A DNA stretch of 64,000 nucleotides, taken from positions 5,190-69,189 of the forward strand of contig DAIQMY010000005.1 of the NCBI GenBank assembly GCA_036788695.1, in the 5' to 3' direction. The number at the start of each line of letters is the position of its first letter. The stretch's first letter is position 1. The notes below the pieces were generated by a model, which did no database searches, was not told the DNA's origin, and saw nothing but the letters and a program-made list of their open reading frames with translations. The position numbers and the translations under genes were made by a program. This DNA comes from Candidatus Levyibacteriota bacterium. Its GTDB lineage: Bacteria > Patescibacteriota > Microgenomatia > Levybacterales > GWA1-39-11. This document shows positions 4,050 through 39,936 of the stretch, one piece after another.

Positions 4050-4240
4050 GTTAAAAATATCTAATCAGAAAACAGAATAGCTTGTCAATAAGCAATTTCT
4101 TACAGGATGAATATTTATTCTATTATTAACTTTTTCTGTCTGTAAATTAAACAATTTTAAAACGTTATAAATTACTAGAGGATAGATTGTATCTTAAAAA
4201 ATATATAGATTTAACAAAAAATCTTGTCTTTCCTATTTTT

Positions 4241-4855
4241 TTAAATCTGAAGAAAAGAAACCTCTATTGCCATTTTTTTATTCACATTATTTGTCTTTGT
4301 CAACTTATATGATGTGTGCAATTTCCGAAGCACCGGTAAAACTACGGGGGCAAACGTTATGTCTTTTATAATAAGACTTCTTAGGACCAGAAGCACTGAT
4401 TCGATATTTTCTACTTCTACAACAGCCGGCAATAGACTCGTAATTCCAAAAGTATCAGAAGATGTGGCAAGTACTTTCCTTATTCCATCAAAAAGCTCAG
4501 TATCCACTTCTTTTTTTTCTTTATCTAAATTCACTATTTGACATCTGGATAAAATTGTTGGTAATAAGTCGTCTTTTGTATTTGACACAAAAAACATAAC
4601 ATTTTGAGTAGTTGCTTCTTCAACTGTTTTCAGGAGTGAGTTTTGAGCTTCGATTGTCGGATTGGTTATAATTATCACCCGCATAGCGCCTTCCTTCAAT
4701 TTTAAAGATATTGTATGCTGAAGCAGGCGAACCTGCCCAATTTTGCAGTTATCAAGTCTTATTACATGATAAGAGGGGATGTTATGTATTTTTATGAAAG
4801 AACTTATATGTGCTTCTTGAAAATGTAAGGATCCAATGAGTGCGTATGTATGCAT
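4241..4855 (-). CDS. minimal DNA polymerase III delta' (HolB)-like protein
   Basis: NSLLKTVEEATTQNVMFFVSNTKDDLLPTILSRCQIV matches the delta' signature LLKTLEEPP...LLPTIxSRCQ. The P-loop region is degenerate (HTYALIGSLH) and the protein is short at 204 aa. Confidence 0.5.
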   Translation of the reverse strand: MHTYALIGSLHFQEAHISSFIKIHNIPSYHVIRLDNCKIGQVRLLQHTISLKLKEGAMRVIIITNPTIEAQNSLLKTVEEATTQNVMFFVSNTKDDLLPTILSRCQIVNLDKEKKEVDTELFDGIRKVLATSSDTFGITSLLPAVVEVENIESVLLVLRSLIIKDITFAPVVLPVLRKLHTSYKLTKTNNVNKKMAIEVSFLQI

Positions 4856-6676: not shown

Positions 6677-6683
6677 TATACAT

Positions 6684-7751
6684 ATGGAAATTTTAGAATT
6701 ACTTGAAAAAACAGTTCAGAACAATGCCTCAGACCTTCACTTGGTAGTCGGGGATGTACCGGCTGTAAGAATTGATGGAAGATTAACATTTCTAAATACC
6801 TATCCACAGATAGAAAAAACGGAAATGGAAAAAATGATTGGAAGCATTTTAACTGCCCACCAGAAAGAATTCTTAATAAATAACAGAAGTCTAGATTTCT
6901 CATACGCCTATGGGGGAGGAAATTTTGGAGACAAGGGACGATTTAGAGTTAACTGTTACTATCAAAGGGGAACGCTTGCTGCTGCCTTCAGACTTCTCCC
7001 TACAAGAATCAGAACCATAGAGGAATTGGGACTTCCTCCGGTCTGTAGTACATTTTCAAAATTAAGACAGGGGTTTGTCCTCGTAACAGGACCTACGGGA
7101 CATGGAAAATCTACAACGCTTGCCGCAATTATTAATCAGATAAACAATGAGCGTTCATCAAATATTATTACAATTGAAGACCCTATTGAGTACATGTACC
7201 CGAAAGGGAAGAGCATAGTCTCTCAAAGAGAATTAGGTTCTGACACTTTTTCATGGCATGAAGGCCTTAAGAGCGCGTTAAGAGAAGATATTGATGTTGT
7301 TTTAATTGGTGAAATGCGAGACCCTGAAAGTATAGCAACGGCTATTTCAATTGCGGAAACGGGTCATCTAGTTTTCTCAACACTTCACACAAATTCAGCG
7401 GCTCAAAGCATTGACCGCATAATAGACTCTTTCCCGGAAGCGCAACAGGCTCAAATTAGAGTACAACTTGCAGGAACTCTTGCAGGAATAATCTCTCAAA
7501 GACTTATTGAGAGAATTGATGCTGGTCGTGCTGTAGCCACCGAAGTCTTACTAGGAACAAATGCAGTTAGAGCAACCATCAGAGACGGAAAAACACATTT
7601 GCTTGATTCAATCATTGAAACCTCTCAAAACGAGGGCATGATACCTCTTGATGTATCTTTGGCCAATCTGGTAAAAGACGGCGCAATTGCGCTTGATACA
7701 GGGAAAAGCTATACGCTTCATATGGACTCTTTCCTAAGACTACTCTCATAA
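6684..7751 (+). CDS. pilT: twitching motility / retraction ATPase PilT
   Basis: GPTGHGKSTTLAAIINQIN, IEDPIEY and GEMRD motifs. The ATG at 6684 lies just after the pilB stop. Confidence 0.85.
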   Translation: MEILELLEKTVQNNASDLHLVVGDVPAVRIDGRLTFLNTYPQIEKTEMEKMIGSILTAHQKEFLINNRSLDFSYAYGGGNFGDKGRFRVNCYYQRGTLAAAFRLLPTRIRTIEELGLPPVCSTFSKLRQGFVLVTGPTGHGKSTTLAAIINQINNERSSNIITIEDPIEYMYPKGKSIVSQRELGSDTFSWHEGLKSALREDIDVVLIGEMRDPESIATAISIAETGHLVFSTLHTNSAAQSIDRIIDSFPEAQQAQIRVQLAGTLAGIISQRLIERIDAGRAVATEVLLGTNAVRATIRDGKTHLLDSIIETSQNEGMIPLDVSLANLVKDGAIALDTGKSYTLHMDSFLRLLS

Positions 7752-7758
7752 ATGCACT

Positions 7759-22747: not shown

Positions 22748-23680
22748 CTAGCGATTCCCCTGATGAAATTTTTTATGAACTTCTTTGAGTTGAGGGTTTG
22801 TTATGTGAGTATAGATTTGTGTCGTTGATATATTTTTATGTCCCAACATTTCTTGAACTGAACGTAAATCCGCACCGTTTGACAGCAGATCAGTTGCAAA
22901 TGAATGTCTCATGGTATGCGGAGTTGCTTTAACAGGAATACGGGATGACTTAACATATCTTTCAACGATTCGCTCAATAGAACGAGGAGTTAGTCTCATT
23001 TTTTCACCATTATTTTCTATGCTAGGTGACTTTGCGTATCTAATAAAAAGCGGCTTAAATGTATCCATTCGTATTTCCGTGTATTTTGTTATCCAAAATA
23101 CTGCTGAATCAGATAAAAACACAATTCTAGCTCTATTTCCTTTTCCTATCACCCCAAATTCGCGTGTTTTAAGATTTATAGAGTCTCTATTTAAGCGTGT
23201 AAGCTCAGATACACGCAGGCCAGTTGAAAAAAGCATTTCTAAAATTGTTCTATCCCGTAGTCCCTTTTCCGACCCTGTATCTACTGCATTAAATAACTCT
23301 CTTAGGTGGTTTTGGTCTAAAAACTTCAAGGACCTAGATTCAGCCCTTGGAAGGTCTATCTTTTCAGGGGCTAGTGTATTTTTATCGTTTCGTATGAGAT
23401 ACCGTAAGCACGATCGAAGGGCTATAATGTGGTAGCTTTGAGTAATTCTTTTAAGTGTTAATCCTTTCTCATCCGTCAGATTAGATAAATACACCCGATA
23501 CTTACGCACTACATCTGTAGTGATGCTTGAAACATCTCCTTTTTTTTCATACTCCTCAAACCACAACCGAAAACGTTCAAGATAAAATTTATAATTACGA
23601 ATAGTCAACTTTGAGGAATTTTTTTCTATTTCCAAATATTCAAGAAATTGATTTATGTATTGTTCTAATTCACTTTTCAT
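22748..23680 (-). CDS. tyrosine site-specific recombinase (XerC/XerD-like)
   Basis: LRVSEL (box I Arg), HTMRHSFATDLL (H-x-x-R) and LGHKNISTTQIYTHI (catalytic Tyr) are all present. Confidence 0.8.
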   Translation of the reverse strand: MKSELEQYINQFLEYLEIEKNSSKLTIRNYKFYLERFRLWFEEYEKKGDVSSITTDVVRKYRVYLSNLTDEKGLTLKRITQSYHIIALRSCLRYLIRNDKNTLAPEKIDLPRAESRSLKFLDQNHLRELFNAVDTGSEKGLRDRTILEMLFSTGLRVSELTRLNRDSINLKTREFGVIGKGNRARIVFLSDSAVFWITKYTEIRMDTFKPLFIRYAKSPSIENNGEKMRLTPRSIERIVERYVKSSRIPVKATPHTMRHSFATDLLSNGADLRSVQEMLGHKNISTTQIYTHITNPQLKEVHKKFHQGNR

Positions 23681-24916
23681 GGGCAGAGTAGGGTACTAAC
23701 TATATTTTGCGACATACAACACGGTATGTCAATGGAGACATTCACTTACTCCTGAGTTTCTGATTATGAATCTATGGAAAAATAAAAAAATATTTTTAAT
23801 TTCACAAAGCAGAATAACATTATGCGACATAATCATGATTGCTTAGGATAATGACTAGTTGCAAATGACTTATATTTTTCAACATGTATTGGATTATTTG
23901 GGCGAATTCGCACATGTTTACTTAAATAAATTCTCAAAATAAATCCGTATGGAAATTCTGGTGTCGTAAGACCAATCTTGCTCATTTTATTTCTAAGGTT
24001 TAAGAGACGAATCCGCGCGCTAGCCATATTAGGATTTCCTGAACTACCCTTTGTATACCCAATCCTGATCCTTGTAAACTAGCCCTTCCAGAATGCGATT
24101 CTAGAGGGTTTTTATAAAGAAGATGGGTAGATAGTCATCTATATTTTGTCAATACTGCATTGCATGTTAAAAGTCGCCGTGGAAAATAACTCTGTATTTA
24201 CGAACCTATAGTGAGGGTATTTTTATGTCTTTTTTAAAAGAGGATATAAGGAGACAATTCAGATTTCCAAATATAGCAAAACTCAATAGAATATGAAAAT
24301 AAAACATGCTATAAAAATGGCAAGGCACTCTTCCGCACATATCTTATTTATGTCGTAAAAGTATTATTGTGCGACATAATAATGTCACCATATCAAAAGC
24401 TAGAGTACTGCAGAATGGTTATCTGCCAATTACATATGTCTGCTTGTTGCGACATTACAAGTAAAGGAAATGAGGCTATTTTAGCCCCTCCCCCGGGTAG
24501 TACCTTTTAAACCTACCAAAATCCGTGAAAATAAATAGTTTCACTCCACAAACAGAGTGCAAAAAGTATTAATAAATCAATCTTTTTTAATCTATTTAGC
24601 CTCAAATTACCACTCTATAGTAGCGCCTTCTTACAAAAAGAGGTTTCGTATTTTTTTCGTTTTCCTCTTGTTCTAGCCTGAAGACAAATAAAGGCATCCA
24701 TAGCACCTATGCTCAGGAGAGTCGTGAAAAGTCATACGTAAAATCTTGCTATTTTTTGAGGCTATTTTGAGGCTAGTGAAAAGTTTTTTACCGAAGCTAA
24801 ACTTATCCACATTTATTATTATGGGATGTAATTTAACATGTATCAAACTATATCATTTGAGGCTAATTATAGGTATTACTCCTCTATTCCACTTCCCTTT
24901 CTATTCGTAATTATAC
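23681..24916. repeat. 1.2 kb non-coding repeat-rich region containing TGCGACAT x4 (23708, 23823, 24370, 24448, same orientation), TGAGGCTA x5 (tandem TTTTGAGGCTA x2 at 24754-24775, plus 24471, 24856 and inverted at 24597), a GACATAC-N6-GTATGTC hairpin (23711-23730) and the near-palindrome ATTATGCGACATAAT (23819-23833)
   Basis: Motifs read directly. The track's only ORF here is 64 aa (23833..24027); the longest other ATG ORF I found is 23 aa. Confidence 0.6.
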
Positions 24917-25729
24917 TTAAGCTCCCCATTTTGAAAAAACCAGAAGAAACAAAACTGATAATACGCCAACCCAAACATATTCCCACAATATACCTTTAAA
25001 CAGCCTCTTCTCAAGCCATGCGTGAGCTAAGCCTGAATACGTGTAAAATATGCCTGTTAAAAAAATTGCATAAATAGATGCGCTTACCGGCCATATAGAT
25101 AAAGCGAATGCCAGCTCAATCATCATTATTGAGATTCCACCCGAAAAAAGAAATACCTCGCGGCTCCCTTCTCTTGATTCAGAATATGACCATAAAAATT
25201 GTGTTGCCATTAAATAAGAGATCGCCCCTACCAGAAAAGGTGTCACATATAACGGAAGTCTTAAAGAGAAAATAATACTAAACATAAAAAACAATACAAA
25301 AATGGTTATCACAAAAGAAACGATACGAGCCGATCTGAGTAAATTTATTGTTCGTAAAGTAGAAATTGCAAAGATATTCTGTGTTAAAAATAAAGAATAG
25401 GCACCAAATGAAAAAATGAGCGTTAAAAGTATACGTGTTAAAAATCGTGAGGGAATTAAGGAATAAAATAAACTAAAGGACAATGTGTAAAAAAATGGAA
25501 GAATAAAAATGGGAAGTAAATATGATTTTTTATTAATATCCTTACGCAATATAAGATAGAGAAAAAAAACAGTTAAAGTGGCCAAGAAAAAGGACAAGAA
25601 AATAATAATTCCGCCTGAAAAAAGTTCTGAAAAATATACGGCAACTGAAAGGCTGAAGACACACAATACAAATTTCCCACGTTTTGTAAGCGAAATTTTG
25701 TTCTTTGTACCTAGCTTAAATGACCTCAC
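24917..25729 (-). CDS. polytopic membrane protein, unknown function
   Basis: About 8 hydrophobic segments. Its start overlaps the ruvC stop. Confidence 0.4.
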   Translation of the reverse strand: MRSFKLGTKNKISLTKRGKFVLCVFSLSVAVYFSELFSGGIIIFLSFFLATLTVFFLYLILRKDINKKSYLLPIFILPFFYTLSFSLFYSLIPSRFLTRILLTLIFSFGAYSLFLTQNIFAISTLRTINLLRSARIVSFVITIFVLFFMFSIIFSLRLPLYVTPFLVGAISYLMATQFLWSYSESREGSREVFLFSGGISIMMIELAFALSIWPVSASIYAIFLTGIFYTYSGLAHAWLEKRLFKGILWEYVWVGVLSVLFLLVFSKWGA

Positions 25730-26337
25730 TTCACTCCTCTCCTTTTCTTTTCTTCTTTTTCTGCTATCTTTAAATTTCTTACATGAGCCTTCTCATTCTT
25801 TTTCCTTTCGGTCTCCAATGCCAGAATTTCCTTATCTTTTCCGCTAATCTTCCATGCATGATGTATGGCAATCGCCAATGCGTCAGCAGAATCATCAAAT
25901 GCCTTATCTTTGGCTGAAAATGCAAGTACCCTCTCATCAAGCTTCAATAAAGTTCTTACTACTCTTTGCATCTCTTTTTTATCAGTTTTTCCACTACCTG
26001 CAACTATGTGCTTTACTGCAAGGCTCGTATATTCAAAAAGCGGCAAATTCATCTCAGCACAGGAAAGCATAACCACTCCCCGAGCTTGACTTACTGAAAT
26101 GGCAGTTCTTGCGTTTAGACCAAAAAAAATGTGCTCCACAACAATACAGTCTGGTGAAAATTTATGAATGAGTTCTCCTAATTCTTTATGAAGCGCAAGC
26201 AATCTGTTCTGCATCAGGTCTTCAGCCGGAGTTACTACACAACCATGAGCTATATACTCTACTATATCAGCCTCCTTATGATGTATAATGCCCCACCCTG
26301 TTCTTCCTGTCCCGGGATCAATTCCCAAAATTCGCAT
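25726..26337 (-). CDS. ruvC: Holliday junction resolvase RuvC with Lys/Glu-rich C-terminal tail
   Basis: MRILGIDPGTGRTGWGII ... DALAIAIHH RuvC catalytic motifs. The last ~40 aa are KE-rich. Confidence 0.8.
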   Translation of the reverse strand: MRILGIDPGTGRTGWGIIHHKEADIVEYIAHGCVVTPAEDLMQNRLLALHKELGELIHKFSPDCIVVEHIFFGLNARTAISVSQARGVVMLSCAEMNLPLFEYTSLAVKHIVAGSGKTDKKEMQRVVRTLLKLDERVLAFSAKDKAFDDSADALAIAIHHAWKISGKDKEILALETERKKNEKAHVRNLKIAEKEEKKRRGVK

Positions 26338-36960: not shown

Positions 36961-37046
36961 GGGTGAGTGGCGGAATGGTATACGCGTTAGTCTCAAAAAC
37001 TAATGGGGGCAACTCCATGAGGGTTCGAGTCCCTCCTCACCCACCA
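36961..37046 (+). tRNA. tRNA-Leu (anticodon CAA), type II with long variable arm, CCA encoded
   Basis: Cloverleaf folded by hand: acceptor GGGTGAG/CTCACCC, anticodon stem TTAGT/ACTAA with loop CTCAAAA, T-arm GAGGG-TTCGAGT-CCCTC. Confidence 0.8.
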
Positions 37047-39865: not shown

Positions 39866-39936
39866 GGGCCGTTTGCATAGTGGTAATGCACCGCATTCGC
39901 ATTGCGGAAACGGGGGTTCGATTCCCCCACGGTCCA
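39866..39936 (+). tRNA. tRNA-Ala (anticodon CGC), no encoded CCA
   Basis: Acceptor GGGCCGT/ACGGTCC with a G3:U70 pair, anticodon stem CCGCA/TGCGG with loop TTCGCAT, T-arm GGGGG-TTCGATT-CCCCC and discriminator A. Confidence 0.7.

Follow-up and report, generated by a model that had tools for sequence, protein, structure and literature searches.

A candidate dif site beside the Xer recombinase gene of a Levybacteria (CPR) genome

A conserved 28-bp site as the probable core of the region

The 1.2-kb gap beside the Xer recombinase gene of a Candidatus Levybacteria (CPR/Patescibacteria) genome was found to hold a conserved 28-bp site that, on comparative evidence, is very probably the spot where joined sister chromosomes are cut apart. 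The site lies at 24350-24377 of the window (the whole 64,000-nt stretch of DNA analysed) and reads, on the minus strand, ATGTCGCACAA-TAATAC-TTTTACGACAT, i.e. two near-identical inverted arms of 11 bp around a 6-bp centre. Literature searches found no description of a dif site, or of DnaA boxes, for CPR bacteria; only a protein-level 'Cand' subgroup of Xer-related recombinases was found (PMC8138268). The features of the region are as follows.

22748-23680 (-): Xer-family tyrosine recombinase gene (xerC), the presumed partner of the core site.
23704-23732 (-): predicted xerC promoter, with TTGACA (23727-23732), a 17-nt spacer and CAAAAT (23704-23709); a single dif-type arm, ATGTCGCAAAAT (23704-23715), overlaps the -10 box.
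23819-23833 (no strand assigned): second single arm, inside the 15-bp palindrome ATTATGTCGCATAAT, directly after the stop codon of the winged-helix gene remnant.
23833-24051 (-): 3' remnant of a 175-aa OmpR-type winged-helix gene; the 64-aa ORF 23833-24027 lies within it, and the deletion junction is at about 24051/24052.
24052-24349 (-): about 300 nt between the core site and the former start of the winged-helix gene.
24350-24377 (-): 28-bp candidate dif core site.
24444-24455 (-): third single arm, ATGTCGCAACAA, 67 nt from the core site on the DUF5656 side.
24471-24873 (-): conserved, oriented motif array between DUF5656 and the core site.
24485-24494 (-): the copy nearest the site, in the right flank of the window, of the polar G-rich motif (A)GGGGAG, oriented toward the core site.

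The initial annotation had singled out this region as a large ORF-free stretch with two clustered motif families, and every feature it described was confirmed at its coordinates. The motif TGCGACAT occurs at 23708, 23823, 24370 and 24448, always on the plus strand, and these are its only four copies in the window (1.14 expected across the whole window). The motif TGAGGCTA occurs at 24471, 24757, 24768 and 24858 on the plus strand and at 24597 on the minus strand, again its only five copies in the window. Since every copy falls within a 1.2-kb stretch, the clustering is far beyond chance. The two near-palindromes (23819-23833 and 24363-24383) and the hairpin GACATAC-N6-GTATGTC (23711-23730) read as described; the hairpin lies inside the predicted xerC promoter. 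The stretch 23681-24916 is the largest gap between ORFs of at least 90 aa, the next largest being 6677-7758. The region lies 5' of the recombinase ORF, which encodes a full-length Phage_integrase plus SAM-like protein. However, the region is not entirely non-coding in origin, since the ORF at 23833-24027 (-) is the 3' remnant of a gene that is intact in sister strains. In addition, a fifth, variant copy of the first motif had been missed, ATGTCGTA, on the plus strand at 24350; it pairs with the copy at 24370 to form the 28-bp site.

The interpretations offered in the initial annotation (an att/dif-like locus, the scar of an element, or a novel ncRNA) were partly supported. The first is strongly supported, but in a different register: ATTATT-GTGCGAC-ATAATAAT had been taken as arm-spacer-arm, whereas the conserved unit is 24350-24377, and the other three TGCGACAT copies are single arms, not core sites. 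The second is only loosely right, since there is a scar but no evidence was found that the truncated gene belongs to a mobile element, and the third is not supported (see below).

Conservation and copy number of the site

The two arms are 9/11 identical as inverted repeats, differing only at positions 7 and 9. The site is identical or differs by one base (27-28 of 28 positions) in 10 Levybacteria species whose Xer proteins are 72-95% identical, and conservation ends exactly at its 28-bp borders; the flanks are 68-74% identical in the four nearest species and unalignable in the rest. A relative with a 54% identical Xer (L020) keeps both arms but has a different centre, GATACA. Across 147 further contigs the required pattern always recurred with a 6-bp centre, in 47 variants, including TGTATA, the centre of E. 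coli dif. The layout and length are those of a generic dif site, for which about 28 bp, with two 11-bp arms in dyad symmetry around a 6-8-bp central region, are expected.

Within the window the site is unique at 18 or more of 22 arm matches. One site was present in each of 157 of the 158 site-bearing loci scanned, and only one locus (L170) had a second, weaker dif-like site. In a metagenome scan at least 120 contigs, five of them of 0.54-1.19 Mb, carried one copy each; these counts refer to loci and contigs, not to whole genomes.

Position of the site relative to chromosome polarity

GC skew was higher to the left than to the right of the site in 29 of 35 loci (p = 3e-6), and a downward step of about 0.1 fell at the site in both locus classes. 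Flanking genes were convergent or co-directional in 99 of 103 cases and divergent in four. A polar motif, GGGGAG, pointed toward the site from both sides, with aggregate counts of +195/-24 to the left and +31/-135 more than 500 nt to the right. The flip falls within 500 nt of the site, holds inside genes of either strand, and is absent in viral contigs. In the window itself the counts were +6/-3 to the left and +2/-16 to the right, and those of GGGNAGGG to the right were 0/11. The skew on the xerC side of the window is, however, about zero rather than positive, so the terminus signal is one-sided there.

The Xer gene and its genetic link to the site

The recombinase matched Pfam Phage_integrase (2.8e-40) plus a SAM-like domain. 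Its NCBIfam scores for XerC (241.9), XerD (236.3) and XerA (202.7, against a cut-off of 220) were all below the respective cut-offs, and the XerS model scored 120.8 against a cut-off of 267. Among PDB sequences it was about equally close to E. coli XerD and to P. abyssi XerA (126.8 bits for the latter), XerH being the weakest match (47.5 bits). The protein is therefore not assigned to the XerS or XerH family. It is the only Xer-like ORF in the window, where no FtsK was found either.

In the window xerC lies 670 nt from the site. In the window, the 10 Levybacteria species and L020, and in 36 of the 37 metagenome loci with a Xer hit near the site, xerC lies downstream of the site in the same orientation, at 230-5475 nt in the metagenome loci. 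In 27 other loci with at least 2.5 kb of downstream flank there is no xerC.

A promoter scan detected the xerC promoter at 23704-23732. The same layout, TTGACA/TTGACT followed by 11-13 nt and then ATGTCG-YAnAAT, was present in 9 of the 12 Levybacteria loci aligned, and the 8-mer lay within 70 nt upstream of xerC in 11 of 69 distant CPR loci, where about 0.4 would be expected. The overlap of a single arm with the -10 box suggests autoregulation. The motif is not a general promoter element, since with one mismatch or fewer the 12-mer occurs only in this region. The second single arm (23819-23833) has no recognisable partner at 6-bp spacing; a copy sits 146-279 nt upstream of xerC in six of the loci compared (L010, L011, L013, L014, L016 and L018). 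The third (24444-24455) is restricted to this strain group, being present in the sister strain L002 but absent from L010 and L011, and may be a chance match or a decayed copy.

These data bear on the possibility that the palindrome and the single arms are merely operators of a transcription factor, either Xer acting only as a repressor or another protein, controlling xerC and its neighbours without recombination at the site. Single arms do overlap the -10 box of xerC promoters in many lineages, and an 8-N12-8 palindrome is a common operator layout. However, the full site has no xerC nearby in at least 27 loci, it lies between divergent genes in only 4 of 103 cases, its 6-bp centre is invariant within Levybacteria while the flanks are scrambled, it marks the chromosome polarity switch, and phages carry it. 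This alternative is thus considered unlikely.

A truncated winged-helix gene between the site and xerC

Alignment with the sister strains L002 and L006 showed that a 317-bp deletion removed the start codon and about 106 codons of a 175-aa winged-helix gene, so that the 64-aa ORF is a pseudogene remnant. The intact protein has weak Trans_reg_C and response-regulator hits, and its counterpart in another related locus (L015) passes the Pfam cut-off. It is unlikely to be the binder of ATGTCGCA or TAGCCTCA, since the motifs persist in species that lack the gene. The segment 24052-24349 is 100% identical to that of L002, although the flanks differ by 5-9%. It contains TTGACA at 24147-24152, followed directly by AAATATAG, and the 10-mer CAAAATATAG (24139-24148) repeats the -10 region of the xerC promoter (23700-23709). 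It is probably the leader or promoter of the lost gene, or a recent recombination tract.

The site in phage contigs

The arms were also found in 27 phage contigs from IMG/VR. Several of those examined have a terminase large subunit gene next to the site, and no Xer-like ORF was found in the 235 kb fetched (28 loci, including one metagenome contig), which covered the contigs only in part. This raises the possibility that the site is mainly an attachment site (attB) for phages and other elements that borrow the host Xer, the region being an integration hot spot with decayed junctions. In keeping with this, the ORFs between the site and xerC fall into 21 unrelated clusters. Several of them, however, are ordinary housekeeping genes and the winged-helix gene is a recurrent resident in Levybacteria, so that a variable cargo of decayed mobile elements is not supported. 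No integrated copy flanked by two sites was seen, a second full-like site, as expected for attL/attR pairs, being present in only 1 of 158 loci. Four assemblies end 1-4 nt from the site, but these were rejected as evidence of insertion polymorphism because the 30-nt string formed by T, the site and A is shared by co-occurring species and would break a k=31 assembly graph. Further, elements that exploit Xer use a pre-existing dif, so this reading, unlikely as a replacement, would add to the dif reading.

A conserved motif array with DnaA boxes

The array between DUF5656 and the site holds, in minus-strand order, CCTATAAT (24866-24873); TAGCCTCA (24858-24865); an extended -10-like TGATATAGT (24847-24855); CCCATAATAAT (24815-24825); a perfect DnaA box, TGTGGATAA (24803-24811), the only perfect one in the window; TTTTCAC boxes (24776-24782, 24724-24730 and 24525-24531); tandem TAGCCTCA (24768-24775 and 24757-24764); CGAAAAAAATACGAAAC (24643-24659); CTATAGAGTGG (24610-24620); an inverted TGAGGCTA (24597-24604); GGGGGAGGGG (24485-24494); and a terminator-like hairpin (24472-24488) that includes a TAGCCTCA at 24471-24478. 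The blocks are conserved across Levybacteria. Each motif is 20-90 times denser in the 900 nt upstream of the site than elsewhere in Levybacteria loci, and 3-35 times denser in other CPR loci. The array co-occurs with a downstream xerC in 28 loci against 0, versus 3 against 27 without it (Fisher p = 1.6e-13). This array of DnaA boxes, promoter-like boxes and A-tracts probably acts as regulatory or accessory DNA of unexplained function; a cluster of DnaA boxes next to a dif site has no known precedent and is the most surprising part of the region.

The array could instead suggest a replication origin or origin-like element with iteron-like TAGCCTCA boxes, the palindrome being an origin-associated site or the multimer-resolution site of an anciently integrated replicon. 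As in an oriC, DnaA boxes are clustered with AT-rich repeats: variants of the perfect box in other lineages stay within the DnaA-box consensus (TGTGGAAAA, TGTGAATAA), two to three TTTTCACR boxes are present, often 21 nt apart, and CCTATAAT and TGATATAGT repeats occur, in a conserved orientation. However, skew steps down at the locus, and genes and polar motifs converge on it, the opposite of what an origin shows. No dnaA or dnaN was recognised among the 35 window ORFs scanned, and the array is absent from the 27 loci where the site stands alone. An origin here is thus very unlikely. An origin near gyrB/gyrA in the left part of the window was also rejected, as the ORFs there are type IV pilus genes, gyrB, ppa and gyrA, with no dnaA or dnaN.

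No evidence for a structured RNA

The extended -10 boxes (TGATATAGT) in a fixed orientation, the terminator-like hairpin and the folding of the minus strand could point to a large ncRNA or a long regulatory leader of xerC. Rfam searches, at gathering threshold on the window, at E-value threshold on the region and at gathering threshold on 17 related loci, returned only two tRNAs elsewhere in the window, and an ARAGORN search for tmRNA returned nothing. Folding of the 877-nt stretch on both strands gave unconvincing z-scores (-2.3 for the minus strand, and -1.7). RNAalifold applied from TGATATAGT to the site in 10 loci found no consensus structure apart from the palindrome, which showed one compensatory change in a single sequence and C/A mismatches in two, giving no covariation support. 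Arm positions 7 and 22 often form a C/A mismatch, so pairing is not under selection, and the flanks of the site are not complementary (mean z = -0.55), so an extended stem around the palindrome is not supported. The order and spacing of the motifs vary between lineages and, between species with 95% identical Xer, the region is only 74% identical outside the short boxes. An RNA is thus the least likely of the alternatives considered.

Proposed function of the region

The region is best explained, with good though not full confidence, as the terminus control region of a Levybacteria chromosome. In this view, Xer would bind both 11-bp arms, probably as a single-recombinase system like archaeal XerA or XerH, two sites on a chromosome dimer would synapse, and strand exchange across the asymmetric 6-bp centre would turn the dimer into monomers at division. 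The (A)GGGGAG motifs would converge on the site as FtsK-orienting sequences do in other bacteria, and Xer would probably repress its own gene through the arm at the -10 box. The architecture of the site, its conservation, its copy number, its terminus-like position and the polarity switch rest directly on the sequence comparisons, whereas binding, catalysis and recombination by Xer, a need for the site in dimer resolution, autoregulation and a role for FtsK are inferred.

CPR bacteria are a large, mostly uncultivated part of the bacterial domain. A defined 28-bp site would provide a simple search that marks the replication terminus in CPR genomes assembled from metagenomes, helping to check assemblies and replichore structure, together with a candidate FtsK-orienting motif, a testable case of recombinase autoregulation, and a way to link phages to CPR hosts through a shared site. 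A more far-reaching possibility, which is not excluded but remains speculative and rather unlikely, is that CPR bacteria share one dimer-resolution system of their own, in which a single Xer acts on a near-perfectly palindromic 28-bp dif, represses its own promoter through a lone dif arm, and relies on (A)GGGGAG as the orienting motif, while, where xerC sits beside dif, the DnaA-box cluster couples the replication initiator to Xer expression or to recombination itself, acting as accessory DNA. Tailed CPR phages lacking an integrase would then integrate at this dif using the host Xer, the first tailed-phage case of a strategy so far described for filamentous phages and genomic islands.

Comparison with known systems

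Integrative mobile elements exploiting Xer (IMEX: CTXphi, VGJphi, TLCphi) carry a dif-like site and have no integrase of their own (PMC5357621). Known cases are filamentous phages and genomic islands, while the carriers found here are contigs of tailed phages with terminase genes, whose integration remains hypothetical. The accessory sequences of the plasmid Xer sites cer and psi also comprise a few hundred bp of protein-binding DNA on one side of the core site (PMC5357621), but they bind PepA with ArgR or ArcA and impose resolution selectivity on plasmids; the present array carries DnaA boxes and promoter-like boxes on a chromosome, and is absent where xerC is unlinked. The XerD-binding sites (XDS) of the B. 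subtilis terminus are isolated sites near dif, bound by the recombinase without recombination (PMC11894783, citing Karaboja et al. 2021), as the single arms may be. XDS unload SMC complexes, while here the best-conserved single arm overlaps the xerC -10 box, suggesting autoregulation.

In canonical XerCD/dif with FtsK-KOPS (E. coli, B. subtilis), the length and 11-6-11 plan, the single copy and the position at the skew switch are the same, polar G-rich motifs resembling GGGNAGGG point at the site, and some CPR lineages even have the centre TGTATA. Here, however, the arms are nearly identical to each other, symmetry is strongest in the outer rather than the inner positions, and only one xer gene, with near-equal XerC and XerD scores, is seen in the window. 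The site fails the inner-palindrome criterion for canonical XerCD dif, which requires more than 4 of 6 complementary pairs between positions 7-12 and 17-22 (PMC3025954): CACAAT against CTTTTA gives 3/6, or 4/6 with a G in the right arm. Only 6/11 and 7/11 arm positions match E. coli dif.

XerS/difSL of streptococci and lactococci is likewise a single recombinase gene genetically linked to its site as one module (PMC5357621, PMC1914069). difSL, however, is 31 bp long with an 11-bp centre and unequal arms and lies immediately next to xerS, whereas the present site has 28 bp and a 6-bp centre and lies 0.2-5.5 kb from xerC, the linkage holding in only part of the CPR. Finally, archaeal XerA/dif is also a 28-bp site with two 11-bp inverted arms and a 6-bp centre served by one recombinase (PMC5357621, PMC2958812). 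The site sequence is different here, the host is bacterial, the NCBIfam XerA model is matched below its cut-off, and G-rich polar motifs converge on the site.

Genomic setting of the intergenic region

The window derives from a Candidatus Levybacteria genome (Microgenomates, CPR). Its Xer protein is encoded identically on ENA contig ERZ794922 NODE_28, and the closest relatives of this protein are found in Levybacteria genomes assembled from metagenomes. From 22.4 kb to the right end of the window most genes lie on the minus strand. In minus-strand order, the local genes are yebC, ruvC, a gene for a DUF5656 membrane protein, a 1,236-nt gap, xerC and a 95-aa ORF. The gap is therefore located upstream of xerC and downstream of ruvC-DUF5656. 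It is the largest gap between ORFs of at least 90 aa; the second largest ORF-free gap (1,083 nt, 6677-7758) lies between genes for a PilB-like T2SSE ATPase and a PilC-like T2SSF protein. The DUF5656 gene is the most conserved neighbour of the 28-bp site described below (47 of 159 loci; 24917-26337 in the window, and 47 other loci). In the Levybacteria loci containing ruvC, it starts inside the end of ruvC, overlapping it by 4 nt. ruvC or yebC lies just upstream of it, so that Holliday-junction resolution genes sit beside the presumed dimer-resolution site.

The initial annotation had described the gap as a repeat-structured region containing four copies of TGCGACAT, five copies of TGAGGCTA and a 7-bp hairpin, and all of its coordinates were confirmed. 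The TGCGACAT and TGAGGCTA copies are the only ones present in 64 kb, so their clustering is not due to chance. The features of the region to which the following sections refer are:

23704-23715, single TGCGACAT arm forming part of the xerC promoter
23833-24027, 64-aa ORF, remnant of a winged-helix protein gene
24350-24377, minus strand, 28-bp candidate dif core site
24471-24873, array of conserved short boxes
24803-24811, perfect DnaA box within this array

Sister strains (loci L002, L006 and others) carry a 175-aa ORF between the gap and xerC. Alignment showed that the window and locus L001 have lost 317 bp, including the start codon and about 106 codons; the 64-aa ORF is the in-frame 3′ end of that gene. 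The intact protein is a small stand-alone OmpR-type winged-helix protein. Its Trans_reg_C hit is weak, but the counterpart in the Levybacteria locus L015 passes the Pfam cut-off. About 330 nt, extending from the site to the start of the winged-helix gene (24052-24380 in the window, 8985-9314 in L002), are 100% identical between two strains whose neighbouring sequence differs by 5-9%, which suggests a recent recombination tract or a strong constraint. In one Levybacteria species (L017), an IS200-like (Y1_Tnp) transposase gene (4127-4840) is present between the site and xerC.

A conserved 28-bp site with the layout of a Xer core site

The gap was compared by BLAST with ten other Levybacteria species, the Xer proteins of which are 72-95% identical to that of the window. 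The flanking sequences decayed quickly, showing 74% identity at 95% Xer identity and being unalignable beyond that, while one short block remained at 92-100%. This block is exactly 28 bp long and, on the minus strand, reads ATGTCGCACAA-TAATAC-TTTTACGACAT. Variation was found only at arm positions 7, 22 and 27. This arrangement is the 11-6-11 plan of a Xer core site (PMC5357621). Locus L020, whose Xer is 54% identical, has both arms intact but the centre GATACA. A search with a pattern that fixed the arms and left the six central bases free identified at least 120 metagenome contigs and 27 IMG/VR contigs, each with one copy. There were 47 different centres, led by TATATC, TAATAC, TATACC and TATAAC, and including TGTATA. 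A single locus, L170, has two dif-like sites (296-323 and 1150-1177); the second, ACGTCGCACAA-GATTGT-TTGTGTGACGT, lies 850 nt from the first and could be a junction left by an integrated element.

Arm positions 7 and 22 frequently form a C/A mismatch, indicating that hairpin pairing is not selected, and the flanks of the site do not pair with each other either. The site therefore behaves as a double-stranded protein-binding site, although binding itself is inferred from sequence alone. A structured RNA, which the initial annotation had considered possible, received no support: searches with Rfam and ARAGORN, single-sequence folding and alignment folding gave nothing beyond the palindrome.

Four independent short-read assemblies of this strain (L003-L005 and L007, locus positions 1-32) end 1-4 nt before the site. 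The 30-nt string formed by T, the site and A is identical in several Levybacteria species, which would branch a k=31 assembly graph. These ends are thus an assembly effect, not evidence of an insertion.

The site lies at a switch in chromosome polarity

In 35 non-redundant loci, the GC skew to the left of the site exceeded that to the right in 29 (p = 3e-6). The sign of this difference does not depend on how a locus is oriented, and is that expected at a replication terminus. The step, of about 0.1, falls at the site both in loci with xerC and in loci without it, and is absent in viral contigs. Flanking genes were convergent in 36 cases, co-directional in 63 and divergent in 4.

An unbiased search for words whose strand preference reverses across the site yielded GGGGAG and AGGGGAG. 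In 129 non-redundant loci the GGGGAG counts were +195/-24 to the left of the site and +31/-135 more than 500 nt to its right, the change falling within 500 nt of the site. The bias holds inside genes of either strand, so it is not a ribosome-binding-site or coding-strand effect, and it is absent in viral contigs. (A)GGGGAG is a strongly polar word and a candidate FtsK/SpoIIIE-orienting motif for CPR bacteria. In the window, where copies are found at e.g. 24488(-), 26076(-), 28292(-), 20633(+) and 18563(+), the counts were +6/-3 to the left and +2/-16 to the right, while GGGNAGGG, the E. coli FtsK-orienting word, was 0/11 to the right. Third-codon-position skew in the window gave a replication-linked component of about -0.18 to the right and about 0 to the left, so that the window's own terminus signal is one-sided. 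No dnaA or dnaN was recognised among the 35 window ORFs whose translations or domain hits were inspected. Both tRNA genes of the window (36961-37043 and 39866-39936) are on the plus strand, inside a long run of minus-strand genes and minus-strand polar motifs, and would therefore be head-on to the inferred direction of replication.

Linkage to xerC and single arms

Where a Xer gene is within reach, it lies downstream of the site in the same orientation in 36 of 37 loci. However, at least 27 loci with enough flanking sequence have no xerC, indicating that the site is more than an xerC operator. The window protein scored almost equally as XerC, XerD and XerA, below each curated cut-off, and was the only such ORF in the window.

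The other three TGCGACAT copies have no second arm at 6-bp spacing. The copy at 23704-23715 is part of the xerC promoter, which consists of TTGACA, 17 nt and CAAAAT, with ATGTCG filling the last six positions of the spacer. The same construction appeared in 9 of the 12 Levybacteria loci aligned. In 69 more distant CPR loci lacking a nearby full site, the 8-mer was still found within 70 nt upstream of xerC in 11, against about 0.4 expected. Allowing one mismatch or fewer, the 12-mer occurs nowhere else in the window. The simplest reading is that Xer binds this arm and represses its own promoter. The hairpin noted in the initial annotation is a by-product of this promoter, since the -35 box TTGACAT is nearly complementary to the outer part of the arm; it is conserved only in the nearest relatives.

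An array containing a DnaA box accompanies the site where xerC is linked

The 540 nt between the DUF5656 gene and the site hold a conserved, oriented series of short boxes. These include TAGCCTCA in both orientations, one or two copies of TGATATAGT (extended -10-like), a perfect DnaA box TGTGGATAA, three TTTTCAC boxes, CGAAAAAAATACGAAAC, and GGGGGAGGGG with a small hairpin. The DnaA box is the only perfect one in the window. Each box was 20-90 times denser in the 900 nt upstream of the site than elsewhere in Levybacteria loci, and 3-35 times denser in other CPR contigs. In other lineages the DnaA box varies only to TGTGGAAAA or TGTGAATAA, and two TTTTCACR boxes are often 21 nt apart. The array, observed in the window, in L010-L020 and in 19 metagenome loci, was present in 28 of 31 loci with xerC downstream and in none of 27 loci without it (p = 1.6e-13). 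It resembles a replication origin, but genes, skew and polar motifs all converge here. It can only be said to be a DNA-level regulatory or architectural sequence tied to the linked dif-xerC arrangement; that it is a DnaA-controlled promoter, or accessory DNA for Xer, are hypotheses.

Phage contigs carrying the same arms

Contigs of tailed phages (L210-L236 and L195) carry the same 11-bp arms with varied 6-bp centres. In several IMG/VR contigs (L210, L218, L219 and L231) the site lies 240-1300 nt from a terminase large subunit gene, and in L228 it is next to a major head protein gene. In about a dozen contigs the site is within 400 nt of a contig end. A profile built from 80 CPR Xer proteins found no relative in the 235 kb retrieved, which covered the contigs only in part. 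This fits phages that would integrate at the host site using the host enzyme, although no integrated copy flanked by two sites was seen.

Interpretation and comparison with known Xer systems

The region is a composite. It contains a very probable dif site of a CPR-specific type, single arms that probably regulate xerC, a truncated regulator gene and an unexplained DnaA-box array. The readings proposed in the initial annotation (recombination site, element remnant or structured RNA) were supported only in part. The identification as dif rests on five independent lines of evidence, all comparative: the architecture of the site, its conservation pattern, its copy number, its terminus-like position at a polarity switch, and its linkage to Xer and to phages. 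These were observed directly in the sequences, while binding and recombination of the site by Xer, repression of the xerC promoter, an FtsK-orienting role for (A)GGGGAG and phage integration are inferred.

Literature searches for a dif site in CPR, Patescibacteria or Saccharibacteria found no description. A ‘Cand’ subgroup of Xer-related recombinases from candidate phyla is known at the protein level (PMC8138268). The large dif survey of 2011 predates these genomes, and its inner-palindrome criterion is not fulfilled by the present site (PMC3025954). For the single arms, the isolated XerD-binding sites (XDS) of the B. subtilis terminus provide a precedent for recombinase binding at sites where no recombination occurs (PMC11894783). 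Among proteins in the PDB, the window recombinase is about as close to E. coli XerD as to archaeal XerA, and the near-identity of the two arms of its presumed site fits, by inference, a single-recombinase system.
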